64,000 nt of DNA from an uncultured Chloroflexia bacterium (GTDB lineage: Bacteria; Chloroflexota; Limnocylindria; Limnocylindrales; CSP1-4): positions 67,756 to 131,755 of the forward strand of contig CAVZHW010000007.1 in the NCBI GenBank assembly GCA_963775225.1, written 5' to 3'. Below are positions 2,988-48,439 of this stretch, one piece after another; within the stretch, counting starts at the first letter, position 1, and each line of letters begins with the position of its first letter. Below the pieces are notes generated by a model. That model saw nothing but the letters and a program-made list of their open reading frames with translations, was not told the DNA's origin and searched no databases. Position numbers and translations under genes: made by a program.

Positions 2988-4481
2988 GTGAACCGCGATT
3001 TCATCGGCGCGCTCCTGCAGCTGAACGCCGAGAAGAACATCCCGCGCGAGCAGCTCGTGGCGACGCTGGCAGATGCCATCCAGTCGGCCTACCGGCGCGC
3101 GACGCCCGGCAACGAGAACGTCTTCGTCGACGTCGACCCCGACAGCGGTCGTTTCAGCGCCTACCGCGCGATGTACGTGGTTGACGAGGTCGAAGACCCG
3201 ACCATCGAGTTCACCCTCGACGACGCCAAGCAGCTCAAGGCCGACGCGAAGGTGGGCGACCTGGTCGAAGTCGGCAAGCTGGACAGCGCCAGTTTCGGCC
3301 GTATCCACGCGCAGCTGGCGACGCAGCTGGTCCGCCAGCGACTGCGTGAGGTCGAGCGCGAGCAGGTCTTCGGCCAGTACGCACAGCACGAGTCAGAGAT
3401 CATCACCGGCACGGTCAGCCGGGTCGAGCCGCGCGGCGTCATCCTCGACGTCGGTCGCGCCGAGGCCATCCTGCCCACGACGGACCAATCGGCGACGGAG
3501 CACTACCGCATCGGGCAGCACGTCAAGGCGTACGTGCTCGAGGTGCGCCGTACGACCAGGGGACCGTTGATCTACATCAGCCGGACGCACAAGAACTTCC
3601 TACGCCGGCTGTTCGAACTCGAGGTGCCCGAGATCCACGCGGGGACCGTCGAGATCAAGGCCATCGCGCGCGAAGCCGGCAGCCGTTCGAAGGTGGCCGT
3701 CGCCAGCCGCCAGGAGGGGCTTGACCCGGTCGGAGCGACCGTGGGCCAGCGCGGTGGTCGGGTCCAGGCCGTGGTCGCCGAGCTGGGCGGCGAGAAGATT
3801 GACATTATCCCCTGGAACGAGGACCCGGCAGTGTTCGTCGCCAACGCGCTCAGCCCGGCGACAGTGGTCAACGTCGCCATCGACACGGAGGCGCGCATCG
3901 CCAGCGTGACCGTGCCCGAGCGCATGCTCAGCCTGGCCATCGGCCGCGAGGGCCAGAATGCGCGGCTGGCGGCCAAGCTCACCGGCTGGCGCATCGACAT
4001 CCGCAGCGATCAGGCACCGCCGCGCCAGCCGACACCACGAGCAGACAGTCCGGCGCAGGCAGCCGAGCCGACACCGGCGCCTGCGGCTACCGCCGAGACA
4101 GTGGTTCCAGCCACCGAACCGGCAGGTGCCGTAGAAGCGGCCAAGGAAACACCCAGGAAGCGCGTCAGCCGTGCACGGCAGATCGAGGCGCAACCGGTTG
4201 AAAGCGAGGACAAGGCAGGCAAGCCGGCGGCGAAGGCGGCCAAACCGTCCGCGAAAGCGTCCAAGCCGTCCGCGAAGGCGGATAAGCCAGCCAAGGCGGT
4301 CGCCAAGCCCGCCGCGCCAGCGCTGAAGGCGGCCAAGCCGACCAAGACGGCTGCCAAGCCCGCCGCGCCGGTGCTGACGGCGGCCAAGCCGACCAAGACG
4401 GCTGCCAAGCCCGCCGCGAAGGCTGCCACGGCGGCACGCCGGACGCGTACGCCGGCGACCGTCGCCGCCAAGGACAAGTGA
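2988..4481 (+). CDS. nusA: transcription termination/antitermination factor NusA with a Lys/Ala/Pro-rich basic C-terminal tail
   Basis: NusA N-terminal domain, S1 and two KH domains (LAIGREGQNARLAAKLTGWRIDI). GTG start with an AAGGAGGG Shine-Dalgarno. The C-terminal roughly 150 aa are low-complexity AKP/AKPT repeats. Confidence 0.9.
   Translation: MNRDFIGALLQLNAEKNIPREQLVATLADAIQSAYRRATPGNENVFVDVDPDSGRFSAYRAMYVVDEVEDPTIEFTLDDAKQLKADAKVGDLVEVGKLDSASFGRIHAQLATQLVRQRLREVEREQVFGQYAQHESEIITGTVSRVEPRGVILDVGRAEAILPTTDQSATEHYRIGQHVKAYVLEVRRTTRGPLIYISRTHKNFLRRLFELEVPEIHAGTVEIKAIAREAGSRSKVAVASRQEGLDPVGATVGQRGGRVQAVVAELGGEKIDIIPWNEDPAVFVANALSPATVVNVAIDTEARIASVTVPERMLSLAIGREGQNARLAAKLTGWRIDIRSDQAPPRQPTPRADSPAQAAEPTPAPAATAETVVPATEPAGAVEAAKETPRKRVSRARQIEAQPVESEDKAGKPAAKAAKPSAKASKPSAKADKPAKAVAKPAAPALKAAKPTKTAAKPAAPVLTAAKPTKTAAKPAAKAATAARRTRTPATVAAKDK
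4203..4440 (+). repeat. imperfect in-frame tandem repeats encoding the (A/K/P/T)-rich NusA tail, including a 54 bp unit present twice
   Basis: gcggccaagccgaccaagacggctgccaagcccgccgcgcc occurs at about 4327 and again at about 4381. Earlier shorter repeats are aaagcgtccaagccgtccgcgaaggcg. Confidence 0.6.
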
Positions 4482-4807
4482 TGCTGCCGTCCGCCTCACG
4501 GCCCACGGTCCCCAAGGGTCAGCCACTCACGCCGCGGCGCTTCCCGCTGCGCACCTGCGTCGCGTGCCGCACCGAACGGCAGAAACGTGACCTGCTGCGC
4601 ATCGTGCGCGCGCCCGACGGCGTCGTCCGCTTCGACCCAGGCGGTCGAGCTGCCGGCCGTGGCGCCTATATCTGTGCCGATGGCGCGTGCTGGTCGGCCG
4701 CAATCAAACACAAGTCAATCGAACGGGCACTGTCGGCATCACTTCCGCTGGATCTACGCGGTCAGCTGGAGCGCGGTGAGCTCGTGGACACCCAGAGGGG
4801 GAGGTAG
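4478..4807 (+). CDS. ylxR: YlxR/DUF448 family protein (putative RNA-binding, nusA-infB operon)
   Basis: Conserved RTCVACR...GRGAY motif. Its position between nusA and infB is the canonical one. The true start may lie downstream of 4478. Confidence 0.7.
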   Translation: MMLPSASRPTVPKGQPLTPRRFPLRTCVACRTERQKRDLLRIVRAPDGVVRFDPGGRAAGRGAYICADGACWSAAIKHKSIERALSASLPLDLRGQLERGELVDTQRGR

Positions 4808-4810
4808 CTC

Positions 4811-6697
<1,887 letters not shown>

Positions 6698-7112: not shown

Positions 7113-8134
7113 AAATCGACTCCCTGACATCGGAGGACCTCGCCGCCGTGCCCGCGCAGGTCGTGGAGCTTATCCGTTCGGCGCACGACGTACTGACGGT
7201 GTGCCACGAGAACCCCGAGGCGGATGCCCTCGGCTCGGCGCTTGCCGTCGCCCTCGCGGTCGAGGAACTGGGCGGTCGCGCGACGTCGGTGTGCAGCGAC
7301 GAGGTGCCGCCGATGTACGACTTCATGCCGCGCATCGAACGCTTCCGGCAGGACCCCGACCCGGAGCGCGACTACGACCTGATCGTGGTCGGCGACTGCG
7401 GTGACCTGGCCCGCATCGGCTCAGTGCTCGCCCGGCATGGCGAACTTTTTGGCCGGGTACCCATCGCCAATATCGATCACCACGTCTCGAACACCGGCTT
7501 TGGCGCCGTCGACTGGGTCGATCCCGCGGCCGCGGCGACGTGCGAGATGGATACCCTGCTGATGCCTGCCCTTGGCGTCCCCCTGACGGCAGCCGGCGGC
7601 GCGATCGCGGCCGCCCTGATGGCCGGCCTGGTCATCGACACGGCCAACTTCCAGCACCCCAACACGACGCCACGCACGCTGCGTGTTGCCGCCGAGCTGG
7701 TCGCCGCCGGAGCGCCACTGGCCGAAACGGCACGGCTCATCTACCGCACCAAGCCGAATCGTCAGCTCAAGCTGTTCGGTCTCGTGCTCGGCCGCCTGGC
7801 GGAGGAGCTTGACGGCCGGTTGGTGTGGTCGGCACTGTATGAGTCGGACTATGCGCAGACGGGCGCGACGGTGGCCGACGCCGAGGGCCTGAGCGACCTG
7901 CTCAGCCAGTCGGCCAGCGCGGCGCTGATGATCCTCTTCCGGCAGAGCGGCGAGCGGACCAAGATCAGCGTGCGCACTCGGGAGGGCGGCGAGGACGCCA
8001 CCGTATTGACTGCCACCTTCGGCGGCGGCGGGCACGCGCGCGCTGCTGGGGCGACGGTCGACCTGCCCATCGACGACGCCGTCAAGGCGGTGCTCGACGC
8101 GGCCCGCCGGATGCTCGCCGCGAACGTTGGCTGA
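7109..8134 (+). CDS. nrnA: DHH/DHHA1 family bifunctional oligoribonuclease / pAp phosphatase NrnA
   Basis: DHH motif (IANIDHHVSN), a DHHA1 C-terminal domain (GGGGHARAAG). GTGA overlap with the rbfA stop. Its position after rbfA matches actinobacterial synteny. Confidence 0.75.
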   Translation: MKIDSLTSEDLAAVPAQVVELIRSAHDVLTVCHENPEADALGSALAVALAVEELGGRATSVCSDEVPPMYDFMPRIERFRQDPDPERDYDLIVVGDCGDLARIGSVLARHGELFGRVPIANIDHHVSNTGFGAVDWVDPAAAATCEMDTLLMPALGVPLTAAGGAIAAALMAGLVIDTANFQHPNTTPRTLRVAAELVAAGAPLAETARLIYRTKPNRQLKLFGLVLGRLAEELDGRLVWSALYESDYAQTGATVADAEGLSDLLSQSASAALMILFRQSGERTKISVRTREGGEDATVLTATFGGGGHARAAGATVDLPIDDAVKAVLDAARRMLAANVG

Positions 8135-24470: not shown

Positions 24471-26206
24471 CCCGTCTGCTGCGGACTTACCTGCGCCCGT
24501 ATTGGCGCCAAATCCTGGTTGTGCTCAGCCTGCTGCTCATCCAGGCCCTGACCAACCTGTACCTGCCCGACCTGAACGCCGAAATCATCAATAACGGCGT
24601 GTCGACCGGCGACACCAACTACATCGTCAATACCGGCGCACTGATGCTCGGCGTGACCTTCGTGCTCGGCATCACCTCGGTCGTGGCCGTTTTCCTCGCC
24701 GCGCGCGTGGCGATGGGCTTTGGGCGCGACGTGCGCGGAGAGGTATTCCGCAAGGTAGGGTCGTTCTCTCAGGTCGAGATGAACCGCTTCGGCACCGCGT
24801 CGTTGATCACGCGTAACACCAACGACGTGCAGCAGGTGCAGATGGTCGTGTTCATGGGCCTGACCGTCATCCTGCTGGCGCCGATCATGGGCATCGGCGG
24901 CATCATCATGGCCGTTCGCCAGGACGTGCCCCTGTCGAGCCTGCTGGTCGTGATCCTGCCGATCATGTTCGTGTTCATCGGCCTCGTGATGCGCCAGGCG
25001 ATCCCGCTGTTCCGGGCCATGCAGGTCAAGATCGACCGCATCAACCAGGTCATGCGCGAGGCGCTCGCCGGCGTGCGCGTCATCCGTGCCTTCGTGCGTG
25101 TCGATCACGAGGAGAAGCGCTTCGACGTCGCCAACCAGGACCTGTTCGAGACCGCGCTGCGTGTCAACCGCCTGTTCGCGGTAACCATCCCGACGATGAT
25201 GATCATCCTGAACCTGTCGCAGGTGGCGGTGATGTGGTTCGGCGCCGAACGCATCTCAGCCGGCGGCATGCCCATCGGCAACCTGACCGCCTTCCTGACC
25301 TACCTGATGCAGATCCTCTTCTCGGTGCTGATGGCGGTGCTGATGTTCATCTTCGTGCCGCGCGCGGCGGTCTCGGCCGACCGCATTCGCGAGGTGCTCG
25401 ACACCCAGCCGATGATCAGCGACCCAGTCGAGCCGGTCTCGATCGTACCCGCGCGCGGCGCCCGGATCGAGTTCCGTAACGTCCAGTTCGGCTACCCGGG
25501 CGCCGAACAGCCGGTACTCCACGACATCTCTTTCGTGGCTGAGCCGGGCCAGACGACGGCCGTTGTGGGCAGCACCGGCAGTGGCAAATCGACGCTCATC
25601 AACCTGATCCCGCGCTTCTACGACGTGACCGGCGGCGCAGTGCTGATCGACGGCACCGACGTGCGCCAACTGCGCCGCGAGGACCTGTGGCGGATGATCG
25701 GCGTCGTGCCGCAGAACGCCTTCCTGTTTAGCGGCACAGTGGCCTCCAACCTGCGCTACGGCGATGAACAGGCGACCGACGACGACCTGCAGCACGCGCT
25801 CGAGATTGCCCAGGGCAATGAATTCGTGGCCGAGATGGACGGCGGGCTGGAGGCTGAGATCGACCAGGGCGGCAGCAACGTCTCCGGCGGCCAGCGTCAG
25901 CGGCTGGCCATCGCCCGGGCGCTGGTCAAGCGCGCGCCGCTGTACGTTTTCGACGACAGTTTCTCGGCACTCGATTTCCGCACCGACGCGCGCCTGCGCG
26001 CGGCCCTGCGCCGCGAGCTGGCCGGCGCGACGGCGATCATCGTCGCCCAGCGTGTAGGCACCATCCTCAACGCCGAGCGCATCGTGGTCATGGACGAGGG
26101 TCGCGTCGTGGGCGTGGGCACGCACAGCGAATTGATGACGAGCTGCGAGACCTATCGCGAAATCGTCTACTCGCAGCTCACCCCGGCCGAGGCACAGGCC
26201 GCATGA
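24467..26206 (+). CDS. ABC transporter permease/ATPase (type I exporter half-transporter, subunit 1)
   Basis: Six-TM domain followed by an NBD with Walker A GSTGSGKST, signature VSGGQRQR and Walker B. Overlaps the marR stop. Confidence 0.85.
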   Translation: MTRLLRTYLRPYWRQILVVLSLLLIQALTNLYLPDLNAEIINNGVSTGDTNYIVNTGALMLGVTFVLGITSVVAVFLAARVAMGFGRDVRGEVFRKVGSFSQVEMNRFGTASLITRNTNDVQQVQMVVFMGLTVILLAPIMGIGGIIMAVRQDVPLSSLLVVILPIMFVFIGLVMRQAIPLFRAMQVKIDRINQVMREALAGVRVIRAFVRVDHEEKRFDVANQDLFETALRVNRLFAVTIPTMMIILNLSQVAVMWFGAERISAGGMPIGNLTAFLTYLMQILFSVLMAVLMFIFVPRAAVSADRIREVLDTQPMISDPVEPVSIVPARGARIEFRNVQFGYPGAEQPVLHDISFVAEPGQTTAVVGSTGSGKSTLINLIPRFYDVTGGAVLIDGTDVRQLRREDLWRMIGVVPQNAFLFSGTVASNLRYGDEQATDDDLQHALEIAQGNEFVAEMDGGLEAEIDQGGSNVSGGQRQRLAIARALVKRAPLYVFDDSFSALDFRTDARLRAALRRELAGATAIIVAQRVGTILNAERIVVMDEGRVVGVGTHSELMTSCETYREIVYSQLTPAEAQAA

Positions 26207-28230
26207 GCGGGCAGCTCGCCGGCGGTCGGCCCACGGGCGGCGGTAGGCCCACGGGCGGCGGCCGCTCGCCGATGGGCGGCGGGCACGGGGGCCCGGCGCG
26301 CCGCGGCGGCTTCGGACCGGGCCACATGATGATGGGCGGCATGCCGCCGGAGAAGCCGAAGGACTTCGGCAGTTCCTTCCGGCGGCTGATCGGCCGACTC
26401 CGTCCGGAGCGCAGTCGGTTGCTGCTGGTCATCGTGCTCGCCGTCGTCAGCGTGATCTTTGCCGTGCTCGGGCCGAAGATCCTGGGCGACGCCACGAACA
26501 TCATCTTCTCGGGCGTCATCAGCCAGAACCTGCCCGCCGGCGTCAGCCAGGCGCAGGTGGAAGCCGGCCTGCGCGCCAACGGCCAGGGCCAGCTCGCGGA
26601 CATGCTCAGCGGCATGACCCTGACCCCTGGGGTGGGCATCGATTTCGGGGGCCTGGCCAGCATCCTCGTCGTGCTGATAGGCATCTTCGTCGTCAGCGCA
26701 CTGTTCGCCTGGGCGCAGGCCTACATCATGGCCGGCGTCACTCAGCGCACCGTCTATCGACTACGCCAGGACATCGACCTCAAGCTCGGCAAGCTGCCCC
26801 TCCGGTACTTCGACGACCACTCCCGCGGCGACCTGCTCAGCCGCGTGACGAACGACATCGACAACATCGGCCAGACGCTGCAGCAGAGCCTGACCCAGCT
26901 CATCACCTCGATCCTGACAGTGATCGGCGTGCTGGTGATGATGCTCACCATCAGCTGGGAGTTGGCGCTCATTTCGGTCCTCGCGGTGCCCGCCGCGCTG
27001 GTCGTGACCCTGTTCATCATCCGCCGCTCACAGCGCCAGTTCGTCGCCCAGTGGGCCTCGACCGGCGCGCTCAACGGACAGGTCGAGGAGATGCACACCG
27101 GCCACAACATCGTGACCGTCTTCGGCCGCCACAGGGAGGCGATGGCACGCTTCACGGAGGAGAACGAGCGCCTCTATGACGCCAGCTACAGGGCGCAGTT
27201 CATCTCCGGGATCATCCAGCCGGCGATGAACCTGATCAGCAACTTCAACTACGTTGCCATCGCCGTCATCGGCGGCGTGCGCGTGGCCACCGGCCAGATG
27301 TCGCTGGGCGACGTGGTCGCCTTCATCCAGTACTCGCGCCAGTTCACGCAGCCCATCGTGCAGGCAGCCAGCATCGCCAACGTACTGCAGTCGGCGGTTG
27401 CGTCGGCCGAGCGCGTCTTCGAGTTGCTCGACGAGGGTGAGCTGACCCAGCAGGCGGAACAACCGCGGCAGCTCGGCGAGATTGTCGGACGGGTCGGCTT
27501 CGACGACGTGTCGTTCCGCTACCGGCCCGAGGCGCCGCTCATCGAACATCTCAGCCTCGTCGCCGAGCCCGGCGCGACCGTGGCCATCGTCGGTCCCACC
27601 GGTGCCGGCAAGACGACGCTGGTCAACCTGCTCATGCGCTTCTACGAGATCGACGGCGGGAGCATCACCGTCGACGGCATCGATACGCGCGACGTGACGC
27701 GCGAGGATCTGCGGCGCGAGTTTGGCATGGTCCTCCAGGACACGTGGCTGTTCCACGGCACGATCCGCGAGAACATCGCTTACGGCCGCGAGGATGCGAC
27801 CGAGGAGCAGATCGTCGCCGCCGCCGAGGAGGCGCACGTCGACCACTTCGTGCGCACCCTGCCGGCCGGCTACGAGACGGTCGTCGACGACGATGCGACC
27901 AACCTGTCCCAGGGCGAGAAGCAGCTGATGACCATTGCACGGGCCTTCCTCGCGGACCCGCGCATCCTCATCCTGGACGAGGCCACGAGCTCCGTCGACA
28001 CGCGGACGGAAGTGCTTATCCAGAAGGCCATGTCGAAGCTGATGGCCGGCCGCACCACTTTCGTCATCGCGCACCGCCTGTCGACCATTCGCGACGCCGA
28101 CCTGATCGTGGTCATGGACCACGGCAAGATCGTCGAGACAGGCACGCACACCGAGCTGCTCGATCGGCGCGGCTTCTATTACGAGCTCTACCAGAGCCAG
28201 TTCGTCGAGGCGCTGGCCGAAGCGGCCTGA
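26203..28230 (+). CDS. ABC transporter permease/ATPase (subunit 2) with a Gly-rich repetitive N-terminal extension
   Basis: N-terminal GGRPTGGGRPTGGGRSPMGGGHGG repeats, then TMD and NBD (GPTGAGKTT, LSQGEKQL). 4 bp overlap with subunit 1, so probably a heterodimeric exporter. Confidence 0.85.
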   Translation: MSGQLAGGRPTGGGRPTGGGRSPMGGGHGGPARRGGFGPGHMMMGGMPPEKPKDFGSSFRRLIGRLRPERSRLLLVIVLAVVSVIFAVLGPKILGDATNIIFSGVISQNLPAGVSQAQVEAGLRANGQGQLADMLSGMTLTPGVGIDFGGLASILVVLIGIFVVSALFAWAQAYIMAGVTQRTVYRLRQDIDLKLGKLPLRYFDDHSRGDLLSRVTNDIDNIGQTLQQSLTQLITSILTVIGVLVMMLTISWELALISVLAVPAALVVTLFIIRRSQRQFVAQWASTGALNGQVEEMHTGHNIVTVFGRHREAMARFTEENERLYDASYRAQFISGIIQPAMNLISNFNYVAIAVIGGVRVATGQMSLGDVVAFIQYSRQFTQPIVQAASIANVLQSAVASAERVFELLDEGELTQQAEQPRQLGEIVGRVGFDDVSFRYRPEAPLIEHLSLVAEPGATVAIVGPTGAGKTTLVNLLMRFYEIDGGSITVDGIDTRDVTREDLRREFGMVLQDTWLFHGTIRENIAYGREDATEEQIVAAAEEAHVDHFVRTLPAGYETVVDDDATNLSQGEKQLMTIARAFLADPRILILDEATSSVDTRTEVLIQKAMSKLMAGRTTFVIAHRLSTIRDADLIVVMDHGKIVETGTHTELLDRRGFYYELYQSQFVEALAEAA

Positions 28231-30308: not shown

Positions 30309-31784
30309 GTGGCAAGCAACTTTGTCCACGGCCTGCTCTTCGGCGGCGACTACGACGTCGCGCGCTTCCTGATCGAGCGCGGGCTGGGGGTGCTCTATCT
30401 CATCGCCTTCGTCGTGGCGCTGCGCCAGTTTCCGGCTCTCGCCGGCGAGCGCGGGCTCGACCCGGCGCCGGACTTCCTGGCCCTTGTCGGCTTCCGTCAG
30501 GCGCCGAGCATCTTCCACTGGCGCTACTCGGACGATCTGCTGCGGCTGGTCGCCTGGCTGGGCATCGCCCTGGCCCTCCTCGTCAGCCTGGGCATGGCCG
30601 CGGCGCTGCCGCTGCCGCTGACCATGCTCGTGTGGTTTGCGCTGTGGGCGCTCTACCTGTCGATCGTCAACGTCGGCGGCACCTTCTACGGTTTTGGCTG
30701 GGAGTCCCAGCTGGTCGAAACCGGCTTCGTGGCGATTTTTCTGGGCAACAGCGCCTACGCGCCGCCCTTCGTGGTGCTGCTGCTGCTGCGCTGGATCGCC
30801 TTTCGCGTCGAGTTCGGCGCGGGCTTGATCAAGTTGCGTGGCGACCCGTGCTGGCGCAACCTGACGTGCCTCGACTACCACCACGAGACCCAGCCGCTGC
30901 CCAACCCGCTGAGCTGGTTCGCGCATCACGCGCCGCGCGTCTTCCATCGCCTCGAGGGCGCGGGCAACTTCTTCGCCCAGCTGGTGCTGCCGCTCGGGCT
31001 GTTCCTGCCCCAGCCGCTGGCGTCACTCGCGGCCGTGCTGATGATCGGTACGCAGCTGTACCTCGTCCTTACCGGCAACTACGCCTGGCTCAACTGGATC
31101 ACGATCCTGGCCCTCGTTGCCGGGATATCCGATTCGTCGATCGAGCTGCTGCTGCCGGGCGTCGCGCCAGCAGGCATTGGCGTTGCCGGCGCACCGTCGT
31201 GGTTCGTCGCCGCCGCAGCGGCGTTGACGCTGCTCGTAGTTGGCCTCAGCTACTGGCCGGTACGCAACCTGCTCAGCTCGCACCAGGCCATGAATCGTTC
31301 GTTCAACGCCTGGCATCTGGTCAACACCTACGGCGCTTTCGGCAGCGTCACCCGGACGCGCTACGAGGTGATCGTCGAGGGCACGACCGCCGAGCAGCCG
31401 TCGTCCGCCGAGGACTGGCAGGAGTACGGCTTCAAGGCCAAGCCCGGCGACCCGCGCCGCATGTCGCCGCAGATTGCCCCGTACCACCTGCGCCTCGACT
31501 GGCTGATGTGGTTCATCCCCATCTCGCCGGCGTACGCTGGTGATTGGTTCTTCCGCTTCCTCGTGCGCTTGCTGGAGGCCGACCGTCCGACGCTCCGCCT
31601 GCTCCGCCTCGATCCCTTCGCCGGCGCGCGCCCGACCTTCGTGCGCGCCCGCCTGTTCCGCTACCGCTTCTCGACTCCGCGCATCCTGCGCGAGACGGGC
31701 GCCTGGTGGGTCCGCGAGCCGGTGAGCGAGCTGGTGCCGCCGATGCGCCTGCGGAGCGAAGCGGCAATCGGAGCGATTGCATGA
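30309..31784 (+). CDS. lipase maturation factor (LMF1/DUF1222)-like polytopic membrane protein
   Basis: Multi-TM N-terminal region plus a conserved C-terminal region (WESQLVETGF, LRGDPCWRNLTCLDYHHETQPLPNP) resembling LMF family proteins. Confidence 0.55.
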   Translation: MASNFVHGLLFGGDYDVARFLIERGLGVLYLIAFVVALRQFPALAGERGLDPAPDFLALVGFRQAPSIFHWRYSDDLLRLVAWLGIALALLVSLGMAAALPLPLTMLVWFALWALYLSIVNVGGTFYGFGWESQLVETGFVAIFLGNSAYAPPFVVLLLLRWIAFRVEFGAGLIKLRGDPCWRNLTCLDYHHETQPLPNPLSWFAHHAPRVFHRLEGAGNFFAQLVLPLGLFLPQPLASLAAVLMIGTQLYLVLTGNYAWLNWITILALVAGISDSSIELLLPGVAPAGIGVAGAPSWFVAAAAALTLLVVGLSYWPVRNLLSSHQAMNRSFNAWHLVNTYGAFGSVTRTRYEVIVEGTTAEQPSSAEDWQEYGFKAKPGDPRRMSPQIAPYHLRLDWLMWFIPISPAYAGDWFFRFLVRLLEADRPTLRLLRLDPFAGARPTFVRARLFRYRFSTPRILRETGAWWVREPVSELVPPMRLRSEAAIGAIA

Positions 31785-33208
31785 GCGGGGCGCGTGCAGT
31801 GGTTGTCGGCAGCGGCCCGAACGGGCTGGCGGCGGCCATCGTGCTCGCCGAGGCGGGCCTGTCGGTGACGGTACTCGAAGCCGCGCCACAGATCGGTGGC
31901 GGCGTGCGCTCGGCGGAGCTCACCCGGCCCGGCTATGTGCATGACGTCTGCAGTGCGATCTACCCGTTCGGCCGCAGCTCGCCTTTCTTCGCGCCGCGCC
32001 AGCACGCGCTCGAGGGGCATGGGCTGCACTGGGCGGAGCCGCGTTACGCGATCGGCCACCCGCTCGATGACGAGCCGGCGGTCCTCGTCGAGCGCGACGT
32101 CGCCGCGACTGCCGCGCGGCTGGGCAGCGATGCGCGCACGTACCAGTCGCTGATCGGGCCGCTGGTCGAGCACTGGCCGTCGCTGATGCCCGATGTGCTC
32201 GCCCCGTTCCATGTGCCGCTGTGGCCGCCCGACACGCTGCGGCTGGCACGCTTCGGGCTGACCGCGGTCCAGTCGGCGCGCTTCGTGGCGCGGCGCTTCG
32301 CGACGAAGCGCGCACGGGCGCTGTGGGCCGGCGCCGCGGCGCATTCGATCCTGCCGCTCGGACGCTCCATCAGCGCCGCGGCGGGATTGCTGATGCTTGC
32401 CAGTGCCCATGCCGACGGCTGGCCGCTGCCGGTCGGCGGCGCGGGCGTCATCCCGGAGGCCATGGGCGCCCGCTTGCTGGCCCTGGGCGGGCGCATCGAC
32501 ACCGACCTGAAAGTGACGGCATATGAGGAGATGCCCGAACACGACCTGGCGCTCTTGGACGTGATGCCCGGCGCCCTGGCGCGCATCTGCCGCGAGCAGT
32601 TGCCGGGCGGTTACCGGCACAAGCTCGAGACCTATCGCCATGGCCCGGGGGTGTTCAAGCTCGACCTGGCCATCGAGGGGCACATTCCCTGGCGCGATGA
32701 GTCCCTGCTCGATGCCGGCACGGTGCACCTGGGCGGGACGCTCGAAGAGATAGCCCTGTCCGAGGCAACGATCTCCGGCGGCCGCATTCCCGAACGACCA
32801 TTCGTGCTCCTCGCGCAGCAGAGCCTCTTCGATCGTTCGCGGGCACCGGCCGGCCACAACACGGTGTGGGCCTACTGCCACGTGCCCAACGGCTCGGCAG
32901 TCGACATGAGTGAGGCGATCATCGACCAGATCGACCGCTTCGCGCCCGGCTTTCGCGGCCACATCCTGGCCGCCGCCGCCGCCGGCCCGGCCGAGATCGA
33001 GAGCTACAACGCGAATTACGTGGGCGGCGACATCGGCGGCGGCATCCTCGAGCTCGGCCAGCTCTTCGATCGCCCGGCACGGCCGTGGAACCCGTACTCG
33101 ACGCCCAACCGGGCGATCTACCTCTGCTCGAGCGCGACCCCGCCCGGTGCCGGCGTCCACGGTATGTGCGGGCTCCACGCCGCACAGTCGGCGCTGCGTC
33201 GTTTGTGA
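31781..33208 (+). CDS. FAD-dependent oxidoreductase of the phytoene desaturase (CrtI/amine oxidase) family
   Basis: N-terminal dinucleotide-binding motif VVVGSGPNGLAAAIVLAEAGLSVTVLEA. ATGA overlap with the preceding gene. The supplied ORF (31544..33208) starts upstream, inside the LMF-like gene. Confidence 0.7.
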   Translation: MSGARAVVVGSGPNGLAAAIVLAEAGLSVTVLEAAPQIGGGVRSAELTRPGYVHDVCSAIYPFGRSSPFFAPRQHALEGHGLHWAEPRYAIGHPLDDEPAVLVERDVAATAARLGSDARTYQSLIGPLVEHWPSLMPDVLAPFHVPLWPPDTLRLARFGLTAVQSARFVARRFATKRARALWAGAAAHSILPLGRSISAAAGLLMLASAHADGWPLPVGGAGVIPEAMGARLLALGGRIDTDLKVTAYEEMPEHDLALLDVMPGALARICREQLPGGYRHKLETYRHGPGVFKLDLAIEGHIPWRDESLLDAGTVHLGGTLEEIALSEATISGGRIPERPFVLLAQQSLFDRSRAPAGHNTVWAYCHVPNGSAVDMSEAIIDQIDRFAPGFRGHILAAAAAGPAEIESYNANYVGGDIGGGILELGQLFDRPARPWNPYSTPNRAIYLCSSATPPGAGVHGMCGLHAAQSALRRL

Positions 33209-33264
33209 CCTTGGACTCTCACCGCCAATGCGCGGCGGGCGGCAGACTACGCAACGTGAGTCGA

Positions 33265-35379
33265 ATGCCCCTCAGTTGCGCGTGGCGCCAGGCGCTGGCG
33301 GCGGTGCTCGTGGGCCTGGTGCTCGTGTGGTCGGGGGCTGCCGCAACCCGCGCCGCAGATATTCCCAGCCTGCAGAGCGCCGTAACCGACCAGACGGGTG
33401 TGCTGGCCGGACGCGAGGCGGCCATACAGGACGCCCTGCAACAGCTCTTCGAGAGCAGCGGCATCCAGCTCTACGTGCTCTTCGTGCCGACCACCGGCGA
33501 CATGAGCATCGGCGACTATGCCGCGGCGGTGGGCGATCAGGACCTGGGTTCCCGGGATGCCCTGCTGGTCGTGGCACTGCAGGATCACACCGACAACGTG
33601 AGCGTTGGCTCGGGTCTCAGCGACCGGGTCTCGCAGACGAGCCTCGACCGCCTCCGCACGAGCGTCCTCGAGCCGGGACTTGCCTCAGGCGACTACGCCG
33701 GCGCGGTGCTAAGCACAGTCAAATCACTACAGGACGTCTTCGGCGCGCCCGAGCCAGCGGTAACGCCACCACCCAGCCAGCCGGCCCAGCCGGCGCAGAG
33801 CTCCGGCGACGCGCTGATCTTCCTGGTGATCCTGGTCGCCTTGATCGCCGTCGTGGTTGGAGCGGCGTGGCTGGTCGGACGTATCCGTGCCCTGCGCGCC
33901 GAGCGCCAGGCGGCGTTCGAGGAGGCCAAGACCCAGGAGCAGCTCGGTCGACAGGCCAACAAGCTGCTCATCAAGACCGACGACGACCTGCGTGACGCCG
34001 AGCAGGAACTGGGCTTCGCGGAGGCGGAGTTCGGCAGCGACCAGGCCAAGCCGTTGCACTTGGCGCTCGACGGTGCGCACGAGGAGCTCAAGGCGGCGTT
34101 CGCGATCGGCCAGAAGCTCGACGATTCCGAGCCAGAGACACCCGAACAGCGGCGCGCGATGATCCAGGAGATTATCGACCACTGCACCAAGGCCGAGCAG
34201 GTGGTTGCCCAGCAATCGGCCGAGCTGGCGCATCTGCGCGACCTGGAGCGCAATGCCGGCGACGTGCTCGGGCGGCTCGACGGTGACCTCGCCACGGCGC
34301 AGGCTCAGCTGGGCGACACGACCGCGGCACAGGTCCGGCTGGCGCACTTTGCCGACGCGAGCACGGCGTCGGTGGCGGGCAACGTGGACAAGGCGCGCGA
34401 CAAGATCGCGCTCGCGCAGGAACGCCTGGCAGGCGGCCACAAGGCGTTGGCTGACGGCCAGAAGTCGGCTGCGGCACTGGCGGCGAACGAGGCTCAGACC
34501 GCCTTGGCCGATGCCACCACGCTGCTGACGGCGGTAGGCAACATGGCCGATTCGCTGGAGCAGACGGCGACCAAGCTGGACACCGAGCTGAAGGAAGCGG
34601 CGAGCGATGTCGAGGCTGCCCAGGCGGCGGTCAAACCAGGCGGACAGCCGACCCCGCCGCAGGCGCTTGCCGACGCCCAGTCGGCACTCAGCGACGCGCA
34701 GGCCAAGGCAGCCGGCGACCGACCCGACGTGCTGGCGGCGTTCCAGAGCGCGACGCAGGCGCATACGCTCGCCGACAAGATCCTGGCCGACGTACGCGAG
34801 GAGGCGGCGAAGCGGCAGCGTGCCTACCAGGGAGCGCAGGCGGCCATCGCCGCGGCCGACACCGGCGTGAGCCGGGTGCGCGATTACATCTCCGGCAATC
34901 GCCGCTCGCAGGACATCGGCCGTGCGGCGCGCAATCGGCTCGCGGAGGCGGAGCGGCACCTGGCACAGGCCAAGGCGGTGCTCGAACAGGACAGCGCGAA
35001 TGCCCTGTCCGAGGCGAATACGGCTGGGCAGCTCGCCAACGAGGCGTACGCGCTGGCTCAGCAGACGCCGCCCAGCTACGATCCCATCGATCCCAACCGC
35101 TATCGACCCGACACCGGCTTCGGCTCACTTTTGGCGGGTGCCATCCTGGGCTCGATCCTGACCGGTGGCGGACGACGCGGCGGGTGGGGTGGTGGGTACC
35201 GCGGCGGCCGGGGCGCGCCGACCAGGGGTCCGTCGGGCTGGGGCGGGCCAAGTGGTGGTTTCGGTGGCGGCCGCGCCAGCAGCGGTGGCTTCGGTGGTGG
35301 TTTCGGATCGGGTGGCTTCGGTGGAGGCCACGGTGGTGGTGGTTTCGGCGGCGGCCGCTCGAGCGGCGGTCACTGGTAG
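33265..35379 (+). CDS. TPM-domain membrane protein with a roughly 430 aa coiled-coil region and a Gly-rich C-terminal tail (YgcG-like topology)
   Basis: Signal peptide, then a TPM/TLP18.3 phosphatase-like domain (LFESSGIQLYVLFVPTTGD). Then a TM helix (LIFLVILVALIAVVVGAAWLV), a long Ala/Gln/Glu/Leu heptad-rich segment, a second hydrophobic segment (FGSLLAGAILGSIL), and a GGFGGG-repeat tail. Confidence 0.7.
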   Translation: MPLSCAWRQALAAVLVGLVLVWSGAAATRAADIPSLQSAVTDQTGVLAGREAAIQDALQQLFESSGIQLYVLFVPTTGDMSIGDYAAAVGDQDLGSRDALLVVALQDHTDNVSVGSGLSDRVSQTSLDRLRTSVLEPGLASGDYAGAVLSTVKSLQDVFGAPEPAVTPPPSQPAQPAQSSGDALIFLVILVALIAVVVGAAWLVGRIRALRAERQAAFEEAKTQEQLGRQANKLLIKTDDDLRDAEQELGFAEAEFGSDQAKPLHLALDGAHEELKAAFAIGQKLDDSEPETPEQRRAMIQEIIDHCTKAEQVVAQQSAELAHLRDLERNAGDVLGRLDGDLATAQAQLGDTTAAQVRLAHFADASTASVAGNVDKARDKIALAQERLAGGHKALADGQKSAAALAANEAQTALADATTLLTAVGNMADSLEQTATKLDTELKEAASDVEAAQAAVKPGGQPTPPQALADAQSALSDAQAKAAGDRPDVLAAFQSATQAHTLADKILADVREEAAKRQRAYQGAQAAIAAADTGVSRVRDYISGNRRSQDIGRAARNRLAEAERHLAQAKAVLEQDSANALSEANTAGQLANEAYALAQQTPPSYDPIDPNRYRPDTGFGSLLAGAILGSILTGGGRRGGWGGGYRGGRGAPTRGPSGWGGPSGGFGGGRASSGGFGGGFGSGGFGGGHGGGGFGGGRSSGGHW

Positions 35380-35394
35380 CGGAAGGAGAAGGAA

Positions 35395-36105
35395 ATGGCG
35401 CAGTCGATCCTGGGGCGCATCGGGCAGCTGGTGCGCGCCAACGTGAACGCGATGCTCGATTCGGCCGAGGACCCGGAGAAGATGCTCGACCAGCTGGTGC
35501 GCGACTTCACCGACAACATCGCCGAGGCGGAGCAGGCCGTCGCCCAGACGGTCGGCAACCTGCGCCTGCTCGAGGACGACGAGAAGGAGGCCGAGAAGGC
35601 GCACGAGGATTGGGGCAACAAGGCCGCCGCTGCGTCGCGCAAGGCCGACGAGCTGCGCGGCCAGGGCAACGCCGCCGAGGCGAACCAGTTCGACGAGCTG
35701 GCCAAGGTCGCGCTGCGCCGGCAACTCAGCTTCGAGAGCCAGATCGCGACCTTCAAGCAGCAGATCGAGCAGCAGACGGGGCTGACCGACCAGCTCAAGG
35801 ACGGCCTGAACAAGCTGCGCACCAAGCGCGAGGAACTGGTCCAGAAGCGCGACGAGCTCATTGCGCGGGCCAAGATGGCGCAGGCTCAGATGCAGGTCCA
35901 GGCGGCCGTCAAGAGCGTCTCAGTGATGGACCCCACGAGCGACCTCAACCGCTTCGAGGAGCGCATCCGGCGGCAGGAGGCAATGGCCCGCGGCATGGCC
36001 GAGGTTTCGGCCTCGTCGATCGACCAGCAGTTCTCCGACCTGGCTGACGCCGGTCAGGAACTGGAGGTTGATTCGCGCCTCGCGGCGCTCAAGGACAAGA
36101 GCTAA
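35395..36105 (+). CDS. pspA: PspA/IM30 (phage shock protein A / Vipp1) family protein
   Basis: N-terminal amphipathic helix MAQSILGRIGQLVRANVNAMLD and a coiled-coil ESCRT-III-like body. 16 bp downstream of the TPM gene. Confidence 0.85.
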   Translation: MAQSILGRIGQLVRANVNAMLDSAEDPEKMLDQLVRDFTDNIAEAEQAVAQTVGNLRLLEDDEKEAEKAHEDWGNKAAAASRKADELRGQGNAAEANQFDELAKVALRRQLSFESQIATFKQQIEQQTGLTDQLKDGLNKLRTKREELVQKRDELIARAKMAQAQMQVQAAVKSVSVMDPTSDLNRFEERIRRQEAMARGMAEVSASSIDQQFSDLADAGQELEVDSRLAALKDKS

Positions 36106-36175
36106 CCGGGCGACGCTGGCCGGTCAGGAGCGTCACACGCCCAGCCGCTGGGCGGTTCCGGAGACCAGCGTGCGT

Positions 36176-36204
36176 GGGTTATGCCGACGACATCGGCATA
36201 ACCC
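36176..36204. terminator. terminator hairpin between convergent pspA and sppA
   Basis: gggttatgccga-cgaca-tcggcataaccc is a perfect 12 bp stem, 70 nt after the pspA stop. Confidence 0.5.
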
Positions 36205-36421
36205 GGTCTGCGAAGGCACAAGCGCCGATGCGGCAGACGGCCGTGAGCGTCCGGCCGGGGTATGCCTGAGCGAGGGCCGCCTTCTGTAGGACGGATGACG
36301 GGCTGTCGGCGCGGAACCGCGCGCTTGAGGCGGGTCTTGGGTCCACCATGCCAGCGTAATTGGCATGGCTGTGGCCAAGCGATCGTGAGCGTGCCGCGCG
36401 CCGCTGGGCTCTCCGCCGGCG

Positions 36422-37237
36422 CTACAGGCGCAGGTGGTCATTCAGTCGCGCGTCGATCTCGTCGGATAGTGCGCCTGCCACGCGCGTCGCGAAACGATCG
36501 GTGAGGCGCGCGAAGAATGGCCGTGGCAGACGGGCGACGGCCGCCTTGGCCGGAATGCCGGCCATGCCCGCGGCAATCTCGGTCGCATGCTCCAGATCGC
36601 CGATCTCGTCGACCAGGCCCAGATCGACGGCCTGGCGGCCCAGCCATACTTCGCCGGTCGCCAGCGCCCGTGCCTTCTCGGCAGAGAGGTGTCGCGCACT
36701 CGCGACGCGCTCGACGAACGCGTCGTACACGTGCTCGACGAGCTGCTGCTCCTTCGCCGCTTCCGCCTCCAATTCGCTGCGCCACGGTGCGCCCATGCCC
36801 TTCAAGCCGCCGGCCGTATGCTCGCTGACGTTGACACCCAGCCGCTCGAGCAGTGCCGGCACACGTGGCGCGACGTTGATCACGCCGACCGAGCCCACCA
36901 CCGAGGTCGGCGCGGCGACGATGCGCCGAGCGGCAATGGCCGCGAGATAGGCGCCCGAGGCGCCGGTGCCGGTGATAGCGGCAACGAGCGGCTTGGCCGC
37001 GGCCAGGCGTTCGAGCGCCATGAACAGGTTGTCCGATGCCGCCGCCGAGCCCCCCGGCGAGTCGATGTCGACGACCACCGCCGGCACCTTCCTGTTCTCA
37101 CGCAAGCGACGCACGAGCTCGAGCCACTCGGCGTTGCGCACGCCGCCGCCGATCGTCCCGTACAGGCGCACCACCGCGACGCGCCCGGGGCGGAAGCGGC
37201 GGCGCAGGCCGAGCAGCCGCATCAGCGAGAGTCCCAT
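36422..37237 (-). CDS. sppA: signal peptide peptidase SppA (S49 family, short form)
   Basis: S49 core (GSVGVINVAPRVPA, AASGAYLAAIAA). Confidence 0.8.
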   Translation of the reverse strand: MGLSLMRLLGLRRRFRPGRVAVVRLYGTIGGGVRNAEWLELVRRLRENRKVPAVVVDIDSPGGSAAASDNLFMALERLAAAKPLVAAITGTGASGAYLAAIAARRIVAAPTSVVGSVGVINVAPRVPALLERLGVNVSEHTAGGLKGMGAPWRSELEAEAAKEQQLVEHVYDAFVERVASARHLSAEKARALATGEVWLGRQAVDLGLVDEIGDLEHATEIAAGMAGIPAKAAVARLPRPFFARLTDRFATRVAGALSDEIDARLNDHLRL

Positions 37238-47365: not shown

Positions 47366-48439
47366 ATGAGCGGTGGTCGGGTGTTACAGCGGGTCTTGCC
47401 GCCCGCCAACTCGGGCCAAACGGCACCGGCGGCGCGCGCGTTGGGCGATGATGCTCTGGTCATGATCCGCGCGACTCGCTCCGCGCCTGAGCGTGAAGGT
47501 CTGGTTGTCGGTGGCCTGTGGCTCATCGCCATCGGCTCTGTCTTCGTCGTCCAGCAGCTCACCGCCTGGCCGTGGAGCGAGGCCTGGCCGTTGTTCCTGA
47601 TCATGGCCGGGATTGCCACCGCTCTGACCGCGGTTGTCACCCGCGACTACCACCCCATGGGCCTGTGGCGCGCCTGGTGGCCGCTCGCCTTCACGGTCAT
47701 CGGCGTCGTCCTGCTGCTCAGCACCACCGGCTCGATCGACATCACGCCGGCCCAACTCCTCGTCTGGTGGCCGGTGGCGGTCATCGCGCTGGGGCTCTGG
47801 TTCCTGCTCGGCGCCGTCTTCGCCGGCAGCGCCGGCAGCAGCCCGCAACAGCTCGCGCTGCCGCTCGGCGGCTTGGCCGCGGCCGAGGTCCGGCTGCGCT
47901 TCGCTGGCGGCGAGCTGCGCATCGGCGAAGCGTCGCCGGGCATGCTCGTTTCGGGTACCTTCACTGGCGGCGTCCGCGTCCGGGATCGCTCCCGCCGGGG
48001 CAGGGTCGAACTGCGGCCCTACGCCGAGAGCATGCCCTTCTGGGGTGGCGCGCCGCTGCACTGGGACGTCGGCATCAGTTCACAGATCCCGGTCGATCTC
48101 CGCCTGGAGGCCGGCGCCAGCCGCTCCGACATCGATCTCAGCGCACTGCACGTGCGCCAGCTCGAGCTGCACACGGGCGCCAGTGAGACAACCGTCCGGC
48201 TGCCCACGTCGGGATCGACGTCGTTCCGCGCCGAGGCCGGCGTCGCGTCGCTGACCATCGCGGTCCCCCCGGGCGTGGCCGCCCGCATCCACTCGCGCAT
48301 GACGATCGGCTCGACCAACGTCGATGAGTCGCGCTTCCCGCGCGCCCTCGATGGCTGGCAGTCGGCCGACTACGAGACGGCGGCCAACCGCGTCGACATT
48401 GACCTGCACGGCGGTCTGGGTTCCATCCGGGTGAACTAG
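47366..48439 (+). CDS. LiaF-like membrane protein with a C-terminal toastrack (DUF2154/DUF4097-like) domain
   Basis: N-terminal four-TM region (LVVGGLWLIAIGSVFVV...) and a C-terminal repetitive beta-rich domain (LRLEAGASRSDIDLS...VDIDLHGGLGSIRV). The start may instead be the ATG at about 47464. Confidence 0.6.
   Translation: MSGGRVLQRVLPPANSGQTAPAARALGDDALVMIRATRSAPEREGLVVGGLWLIAIGSVFVVQQLTAWPWSEAWPLFLIMAGIATALTAVVTRDYHPMGLWRAWWPLAFTVIGVVLLLSTTGSIDITPAQLLVWWPVAVIALGLWFLLGAVFAGSAGSSPQQLALPLGGLAAAEVRLRFAGGELRIGEASPGMLVSGTFTGGVRVRDRSRRGRVELRPYAESMPFWGGAPLHWDVGISSQIPVDLRLEAGASRSDIDLSALHVRQLELHTGASETTVRLPTSGSTSFRAEAGVASLTIAVPPGVAARIHSRMTIGSTNVDESRFPRALDGWQSADYETAANRVDIDLHGGLGSIRVN

Follow-up and report, generated by a model that had tools for sequence, protein, structure and literature searches.

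The stretch of DNA analysed here, termed the window, comprises 64,000 nucleotides of contig CAVZHW010000007.1 from an uncultured Chloroflexia bacterium and displays a G+C content of 65-72%. It contains, on the forward strand, two adjacent genes that encode a large membrane protein, hereafter termed the TPM-rod protein, and a member of the PspA/IM30 family. The TPM-rod open reading frame (ORF) extends from position 33265 to 35379 and encodes 704 residues, while pspA occupies positions 35395..36105 and encodes 236 residues. An alternative GTG start codon at position 33085 would create an overlap with the preceding FAD-oxidoreductase gene (end at 33208), and alignment revealed that the TPM-rod homologues share the start site of the 704-residue version; a public collection holds an identical 704-residue protein (P0001). 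The two genes are separated by a 15-nt intergenic spacer (35380..35394; TAG-CGGAAGGAGAAGGAA-ATG), which holds the Shine-Dalgarno site GGAAGGAGAAGG. An initial annotation of this locus had proposed a 704-residue ORF encoding an exported TPM domain and a transmembrane helix, followed at short distance and on the same strand by a PspA homologue, and these elements are all borne out by the Pfam, hydropathy and sequence evidence presented below.

Conservation of the gene pair, which the initial annotation had suggested looking for in related genomes, was evaluated in a scan that included one genome per species and revealed at least 449 loci encoding a TPM-rod relative, of which the best 80 were retained. 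These loci belong to Chloroflexota (Limnocylindria-type and Anaerolineae metagenome-assembled genomes, MAGs) and to Actinomycetota (Microbacteriaceae, Micrococcaceae, Glycomyces, Jiangellaceae, Sanguibacter and others). Six of them stop at the TPM-rod gene, while in the remaining 74 the DNA extends beyond it. In all 74 evaluable loci, from both phyla, the gene immediately after the TPM-rod gene on the same strand is pspA, separated from it by 14-177 nt (phmmer E-values of 1e-62 to 1e-116). Independent contigs agree with this arrangement, whether they were reached by protein look-up (L082-L084) or by starting from PspA (L085 and L086). The full-length search recovered 115 homologues of 600-750 residues, every one with the Pfam TPM_phosphatase domain (PF04536). 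All-against-all clustering of the neighbouring ORFs identified no third gene common to Chloroflexota and Actinomycetota; genes for Arginase-family, DUF418 and extracytoplasmic function (ECF) sigma proteins near the dyad are confined to some Actinomycetota. Thus, pspA is the only neighbour kept across both phyla, which suggests that the pairing is more than inherited gene order.

Several individual loci display additional features. In the contig most similar to the window (L086 5852-7739), which presents the same gene order and a PspA that is 93% identical, a frameshift near position 7586 divides the TPM-rod gene in two, reflecting either a long-read assembly error or a pseudogene. A 956-residue ORF in a Sporichthyaceae MAG (L051 141-3011) was considered as a natural TPM-rod-PspA fusion and rejected; a rare TTA codon occupies the expected stop position, and the single ORF most likely results from an error in sequencing or from a point mutation that arose recently. 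In approximately 22 Actinomycetota loci (e.g. L054 10343-11725, L082 5451-7306 and L083 3624-4400) pspA is succeeded on the same strand by a gene of the Arginase (ureohydrolase) family, in some cases with a gene for a DUF418 membrane protein in between, and then by an enoyl-CoA hydratase gene. Ravi et al. described recurrent links of PspA operons to polyamine metabolism (PMC11237479).

The TPM-rod protein begins with a hydrophobic stretch that constitutes a putative signal peptide (residues 1-30; 33265..33354), as judged from the Kyte-Doolittle (KD) profile. The stretch ends in an AxA-type site, and this site, located just before the TPM domain, is kept in homologues. In line with the initial annotation, which had proposed comparing the N-terminal domain with TPM models, residues 40-157 (33382..33735) match PF04536 over model positions 1-124 of 125 (E-value of 3.8e-18; 66.1 bits against a cutoff of 22.1). 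The AlphaFold2 (AF2) model of the TPM domain presents a predicted local distance difference test (pLDDT) score >90, and the domain shows the alpha-beta-alpha sandwich fold with a four-stranded sheet in both the model and its Foldseek comparisons. Foldseek matches include TLP18.3, BA41, Psb32 and cg2496 (probability of 1.00 and target-normalised template-modelling score, TMt, of 0.69-0.84), the entries matched being 3pvh, 5anp, 8c7i, 7tbr and 2kpt. The top match in a profile search of the PDB is cg2496 of Corynebacterium glutamicum (2kpt; E-value of 2.8e-16), whose TPM domain is the closest solved relative of that of the window. No NCBIfam model matches the whole TPM-rod protein. By sequence and fold the TPM domain is canonical, and it is predicted to reside outside the cytoplasm. 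Ligand residues vary even among solved TPM members, and phosphatase, nucleotidase or metal-binding activity has been reported for some members of the family only (PMC13456599).

A Pro/Gln-rich linker predicted to be disordered (residues 158-183; 33736..33813; pLDDT <50 at residues 163-184) leads from the TPM domain to the transmembrane helix (residues 184-204; 33814..33876; KD up to 3.2), behind which comes the sequence GRIRALRAERQ. The linker ahead of the helix contains zero positive charges and the flank behind it is Arg-rich. Together with the AxA site, this distribution of charges argues for a topology in which the TPM domain is located outside the cell and the rod inside, on the same side of the membrane as PspA.

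The predicted cytoplasmic rod extends from residue 205 to residue 599 (~395 residues; 33877..35061) and is composed of 23% Ala, 10% Leu, 8.5% Gln, 8% Asp and 7% Glu. The AF2 model of the whole protein, for which a 98-sequence alignment was used, presents a mean pLDDT of 85.5, with values >90 for the TPM domain and residues 184-599, and predicts disorder in the linker and in residues 613-692. Modelled alone, the helical region reaches a pLDDT of 95.1 and a predicted template-modelling score (pTM) of 0.75 and comprises 11 helices joined by short turns. In these models the rod consists of 10-11 helices of 7-73 residues, arranged in antiparallel helix bundles. The transmembrane helix runs on into the rod as an unbroken helix extending from residue 184 to 256, and the further helices, by turns shorter and longer, comprise residues 258-286, 293-329, 331-359, 364-396, 400-455, 465-483, 489-544, 553-572 and 577-599. 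Heptad (3.5-residue) periodicity is weak, and the uninterrupted heptad helix of hundreds of residues that characterises a canonical long coiled coil was not found. The predicted multi-helix bundles, the weak periodicity and the match of a 100-residue piece to a three-helix bundle suggest that this region is best described as a rod of three-helix bundles rather than as a single heptad coiled coil. The initial annotation had announced an Ala/Gln/Glu-rich heptad coiled coil of about 430 residues; a long helical region of such composition is indeed present, although it is ~395 residues in length and modelled as helix bundles instead of one coiled coil.

Comparison of the rod with the PDB by Foldseek revealed no match at E<=0.001. 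The best global overlap was with the spectrin-like rod of EzrA (query-normalised template-modelling score, TMq, of 0.37 with a non-significant E-value of 1.8), followed in rank by the rods of talin, alpha-actinin and vinculin, while a designed antiparallel three-helix bundle could be superposed on a segment of 100 residues (TMt of 0.81). Searches of the rod against Pfam at E<=10 returned noise only (T3SS needle and YwqH-like), those against NCBIfam returned nothing, and the PDB profile search retrieved tropomyosin-type and designed-bundle noise only, with no solved homologue. The possibility that the rod is a diverged PspA/ESCRT-III domain was rejected at a probability <1% in profile-profile comparison against a 74-sequence PspA alignment, and internal repeats were also discarded, as the match between the N-terminal and C-terminal halves is unconvincing (probability of 9%, E-value of 0.004). 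The rod, which is modelled with high confidence, is an unannotated domain of ~400 residues, predicted to be cytoplasmic, that belongs to no described family. Searched by itself, the rod sequence yielded 236 representative clusters at E<=1e-30, a number that rises to 923 at E<=1e-10. It nearly always occupies residues 200-600 of proteins of 650-730 residues, and the rod profile retrieves at least 1169 clusters, many of them labelled just 'TPM domain-containing protein' in Arthrobacter, Paenarthrobacter and Pseudarthrobacter. In the representatives P0380, P0411, P0412, P0421, P0438 and P0471 (430-520 residues) the rod begins at about residue 30, leaving no TPM domain; these may be truncated gene calls or genuine variants.

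Conservation of the rod peaks at residues 227-291 (33943..34137), where the columns of three alignments are near-invariant or invariant (LIxTDDALRxAEQELGFAEAQFG ... AFxIxQxLDDxxPETPEQ; 71-79% per block). A second conserved site is provided by the GRxARxRLAEAER helix at residues 553-572. These two conservation peaks make both sites candidate PspA-contact surfaces, and the membrane-proximal residues 227-291 would be the most likely contact.

Beyond the rod, the protein contains a Gly-zipper-like, weakly hydrophobic segment, GFGSLLAGAILGSILTG (residues 618-634; 35116..35166), with KD values of 1.34 over 19 residues and 1.83 over 15. This segment, which corresponds to the second hydrophobic segment of the initial annotation and is weaker than that description implied, is conserved in the family, presents low AF2 confidence across its length and may form a second membrane contact. 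It precedes a Gly/Arg/Phe-rich low-complexity tail (35167..35379, including the stop codon) that ends in GGHW, the family consensus being ..GGGRSSGGRW; residues 640-704 are 55% Gly, as anticipated for a Gly-rich low-complexity tail. As segment 618-634 is short and weakly hydrophobic and the tail behind it is Arg-rich, a cytoplasmic tail is favoured. The charged loops of E. coli YgcG, as read from its sequence, likewise suggest a cytoplasmic tail.

The pspA product matches Pfam PF04012 over residues 4-234 (E-value of 1e-39; 136.9 bits against a cutoff of 33.9). It scores below both the proteobacterial PspA equivalog TIGR02977 (80.7 versus 242.95 bits) and the LiaH equivalog NF045984 (64.6 versus 380 bits) and is thus a PspA-family protein that is the equivalog of neither. 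PspA/IM30 proteins are ESCRT-III-like membrane-remodelling effectors. The PspA of the window shares 77-93% identity with the 120 best cluster representatives, while the TPM-rod partner is ~50-57% identical in the same lineages. A PspA far more conserved than its partner fits a conserved effector combined with a faster-evolving adaptor. PADLOC returned nothing for the TPM-rod protein and just coiled-coil noise for PspA, and an Rfam search around the two genes identified no element.

A perfect 12-bp GC-rich hairpin (36176..36204), revealed by the repeat search and the fold z-score (z = -3.7 for 36103-36260), is located between the convergent pspA and sppA genes and starts 70 nt past the pspA stop codon. 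The hairpin terminator proposed initially therefore exists as a hairpin; it lacks a T tract, and for this reason the consensus scan of 32900-36500 called no canonical intrinsic terminator. The hairpin may act as a factor-independent terminator without a U tract.

The spacers of the nearest relatives of the window are, at 14-23 nt, similarly short and likewise contain a Shine-Dalgarno site. Such spacers leave no room for an intergenic promoter, and this spacing suggests that the TPM-rod gene and pspA are co-transcribed in the window. In seven Actinomycetota loci, Microbacteriaceae-like (L030, L044, L055, L068, L074, L082 at 1200-2445 and L084 at 3575-4887), an ECF sigma gene and a gene for a protein of 243-261 residues immediately precede the dyad in the same orientation. 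The latter protein displays no Pfam match and may be an anti-sigma factor. No sigma factor was found among the annotated neighbours in the window. In B. subtilis, pspA-ydjGHI is driven by a sigma-W promoter (PMC8581546), and the ECF sigma gene found upstream in Actinomycetota parallels this control, supporting a role in envelope stress.

The dyad resembles the pspA-ydjGHI cluster of B. subtilis, in which a PspA/IM30 gene is likewise clustered with the gene for a protein consisting of a signal peptide, a TPM domain, a transmembrane segment and a Gly-rich C-terminal end. Scholz et al. (2021) reported that deletion of ydjG or ydjH abolishes the membrane foci of PspA and YdjI and that YdjH, the TPM protein, interacts with both PspA and YdjI in two-hybrid assays, and concluded that YdjH is a membrane anchor; this anchor role also requires YdjG and the SPFH protein YdjI (PMC8581546). 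In contrast with B. subtilis, the TPM gene described here precedes pspA, its product possesses an additional cytoplasmic rod of ~400 residues while YdjH is much smaller, and the lineages are Chloroflexota and Actinomycetota instead of Firmicutes. No match to a YdjI-like SPFH/Band-7 protein was found among the 30 annotated window genes between 13 and 50 kb, and no YdjG-like zinc-ribbon gene flanks the dyad, the neighbours encoding an FAD oxidoreductase and an S49 peptidase; for both partners, the relatives contain no conserved third gene.

TPM appears among the PspA partners listed by Ravi et al. (2024), and in the searchable tables the TPM context is confined to Firmicutes, with the order PspA->ZnR+TM->SIG+TPM+TM->Band-7+ZnR (ZnR, zinc ribbon; TM, transmembrane; SIG, signal peptide); the sections on Actinobacteria and Chloroflexi make no reference to a TPM dyad (PMC11237479). 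TPM is not mentioned by Popp et al. (2022; PMC9239133), and full-text searches for TPM plus PspA returned Ravi et al. alone. The initial view of the locus as an uncharacterised module thus requires qualification, since the general link between TPM proteins and PspA is already published (PMC11237479, PMC8581546), while the lineage-wide two-gene form with a large rod is not described in the searchable literature.

A second relevant comparison is with E. coli YgcG (COG1512), whose TPM domain is 35% identical to that of the window (E-value of 3e-14); members of the TPM-rod family carry the JGI name 'uncharacterized membrane protein YgcG'. The two proteins have in common a signal peptide, one or more membrane segments and a Gly-rich tail ending in G-R/H-W (..SGRW in YgcG), while YgcG differs in its length of 290 residues, in the absence of a helical rod and in not being encoded beside pspA. 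In E. coli K-12, ygcG starts 13 nt after the small gene yqcG, which is annotated 'cell envelope stress response protein' (L087 5558-6584; 2905557-2906583), and this adjacency provides a further link of YgcG-type TPM proteins to envelope stress.

In Proteobacteria and Bacillus, PspB/PspC and LiaI, respectively, are membrane anchors encoded beside the PspA homologue. They share with the TPM-rod protein just the proposed role, the recruitment of a PspA homologue to the membrane, and present no sequence or domain relationship to it. No PspB, PspC or PspF was identified among the annotated window genes between 13 and 50 kb, so that the locus does not represent a classical Psp system. Nor does it represent a Lia system (LiaIH-GFSR): the only Lia-type gene in the window, at 47366-48439 (+), encodes a LiaF/Toastrack-type protein of 357 residues, with LiaI-LiaF-like transmembrane regions (E-values of 7e-12 and 5e-9) and weak Toastrack_N and LiaF_C matches, and is located 11 kb from pspA, flanked by cydAB and the gene for an fn3 protein; no two-component system was seen beside it. 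The initial statement that PspB/PspC and Lia partners are missing is thus correct for the immediate neighbours, although it did not account for this more distant LiaF-like gene.

The remaining neighbours of the dyad in the window encode, upstream, two ABC exporters, a NosD-like beta-helix protein, a GNAT acetyltransferase, an LMF1-like protein and the FAD oxidoreductase and, downstream, the S49 peptidase (convergent with pspA), exonuclease III and an S33 hydrolase. The LMF1-like protein (30309-31784, +) is a lipase maturation factor homologue with matches to LMF1 (E-value of 3e-58) and LMF1_C (E-value of 2e-44), a family better known from eukaryotic endoplasmic reticulum membranes. The second of the tandem ABC exporter genes opens with a Gly/Pro/Arg-rich repeat, GGRPTGGGRPTGGGRSPMGGGHGGP (26203-26340, +), ahead of its membrane domain.

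We propose, with fair though not high confidence, that the TPM-rod protein is an anchor or scaffold for PspA. The presence of pspA directly downstream in every evaluable locus of two phyla makes the TPM-rod protein probably the membrane anchor of PspA, and the proposal is also made because YdjH binds PspA and deletion of ydjH abolishes the membrane foci of PspA (PMC8581546), a precedent that fits the scaffold or sensor role suggested by the initial annotation. According to this proposal, the TPM-rod gene and pspA would constitute a conserved two-gene PspA system. The TPM domain would be exported, the single transmembrane helix would anchor the protein, and the rigid rod of ~400 residues would extend into the cytoplasm, ending in the Gly-zipper segment and the Gly/Arg-rich tail. 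Beneath the membrane, rod and tail would provide a docking site for PspA, through a physical binding that we infer, and would organise PspA polymerisation there, with residues 227-291, close to the membrane, as the likeliest contact. Possibly, the protein is a sensor as well as an anchor, with the exported TPM domain reporting the state of the outer membrane face or wall.

A bolder form of this proposal, which we regard as doubtful, is a minimal two-gene system in which the TPM-rod protein would act as a dedicated transmembrane receptor, inherited across much of Chloroflexota and Actinomycetota. Its TPM domain would read the outer face or wall, while an EzrA-like arch, held by the transmembrane helix at one end and the Gly-zipper at the other, would nucleate or size PspA polymers, and the three-helix bundles would engage the helices of PspA in a manner resembling the binding of ESCRT-III tails by MIT domains. 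If true, this would define a new class of ESCRT-III/PspA adaptor and provide the first function for a domain present in >900 representative clusters.

Four observations weigh against an anchor that is always produced together with PspA and has the topology described above. The consensus scan (32900-36500) detected no sigma-70-type promoter upstream of the TPM-rod gene of the window. Ten Chloroflexota relatives (L014, L020-L022, L025, L033, L063, L064, L070 and L077) display spacers of 100-177 nt, and alignment of the ten revealed an invariant GTA[CG]GATG, which is -10-like (TAnnnT), right behind the TPM-rod stop codon, as well as, ~15 nt ahead of the Shine-Dalgarno site, a GC hairpin that is conserved and displays compensatory changes. 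In these long-spacer Chloroflexota pspA probably has its own promoter and leader, and the -10-like motif implies that the two genes can be transcribed separately there; the motif is absent from the window. Thus, the operon claimed initially fits the 15-nt spacing of the window, while in some relatives pspA seems to have a promoter of its own within a longer spacer. A distant member of the family (P0113, 719 residues, 28% identity; L081 6001-9082) has a carbonic anhydrase gene downstream instead of pspA and is preceded by two helicase genes, which indicates that the coupling is not universal and was lost in at least one branch. Finally, behind 80 disordered residues, AF2 predicts a beta strand with a pLDDT of ~95 at residues 699-703 (within residues 699-704, 35359-35376), while the model contains no sheet other than that of the exported TPM domain. 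If this strand is real, the tail would be outside the cell, which clashes with its Arg-rich composition, and part of the topology picture would change.

Among the alternatives to a PspA anchor, the most probable, unlikely as we consider it, is that the TPM-rod protein is a regulator, which would restrain PspA at the membrane in an inactive or unpolymerised state and would release it once the TPM domain senses damage. The conserved dyad is equally compatible with a regulator and with an anchor, the exported TPM domain would serve as the input module, and the higher identity of PspA (77-93%) relative to its partner (~50-57%) would be expected if the partner adapts to lineage-specific signals. 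However, YdjH, the one studied case, is required for PspA recruitment and is not inhibitory (PMC8581546), and the sequence itself does not separate negative from positive control.

We consider it quite improbable that the TPM-rod protein acts on the outer face as an enzyme or chaperone through its TPM domain (a phosphatase, nucleotidase or assembly factor), with PspA co-expressed merely for membrane protection and the two proteins not in direct contact. Phosphatase or ATPase activity or a role in membrane-complex assembly has been reported for the TPM proteins TLP18.3, BA41, Psb32 and Rv2345 (PMC13456599; PMC11237479), and the TPM domain of the window is canonical. Such a function would nevertheless leave unexplained the conserved cytoplasmic rod of 400 residues, the most conserved part of which is inside the cell, and would offer no reason why pspA is the only conserved neighbour.

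Very little probability is assigned to a division or cytoskeleton scaffold similar to EzrA or ZipA, in which the PspA homologue would be a cytoskeletal partner and not a factor of stress repair. The TPM-rod protein does present an EzrA-like layout, a membrane anchor that leads into an extended rod of antiparallel helix bundles, and EzrA gave the best global template-modelling score (0.37). This resemblance concerns architecture only, since the Foldseek E-value of 1.8 is not significant and no Pfam EzrA hit was obtained at E<=10. EzrA, moreover, has no exported domain and works with FtsZ. Rv2345 of M. tuberculosis, called an acid phosphatase in the literature (PMC13456599), and cg2496, with the closest solved TPM domain, were proposed as ZipA-like from transcription data; this proposal was never validated (PMC3989709), and no division genes are conserved beside the dyad. 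The least probable explanation, an adjacency without functional meaning that merely reflects inherited gene order, finds support in the distant member P0113 and is highly unlikely given that the pairing holds in 74 of 74 loci of two phyla with constant orientation while every other neighbour changes, and that the same family pairing arises independently in Firmicutes with a proven interaction (PMC8581546).

The value of the proposed PspA anchor is incremental, as a TPM membrane protein has already been published as a PspA partner. To our knowledge, the recruitment of PspA/IM30/ESCRT-III-like proteins to damaged membranes is poorly understood outside Proteobacteria and Bacillus, and we know of no PspA partner for most Actinomycetota and for all Chloroflexota. 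The rod could be registered as a new domain family, and the occurrence of the dyad in cultivable strains of Arthrobacter, Paenarthrobacter and Microbacterium renders the anchor and sensor hypothesis directly testable. The dyad would provide these lineages with a single, simple candidate for a PspA partner, strictly linked over two phyla and without SPFH or zinc-ribbon helpers.

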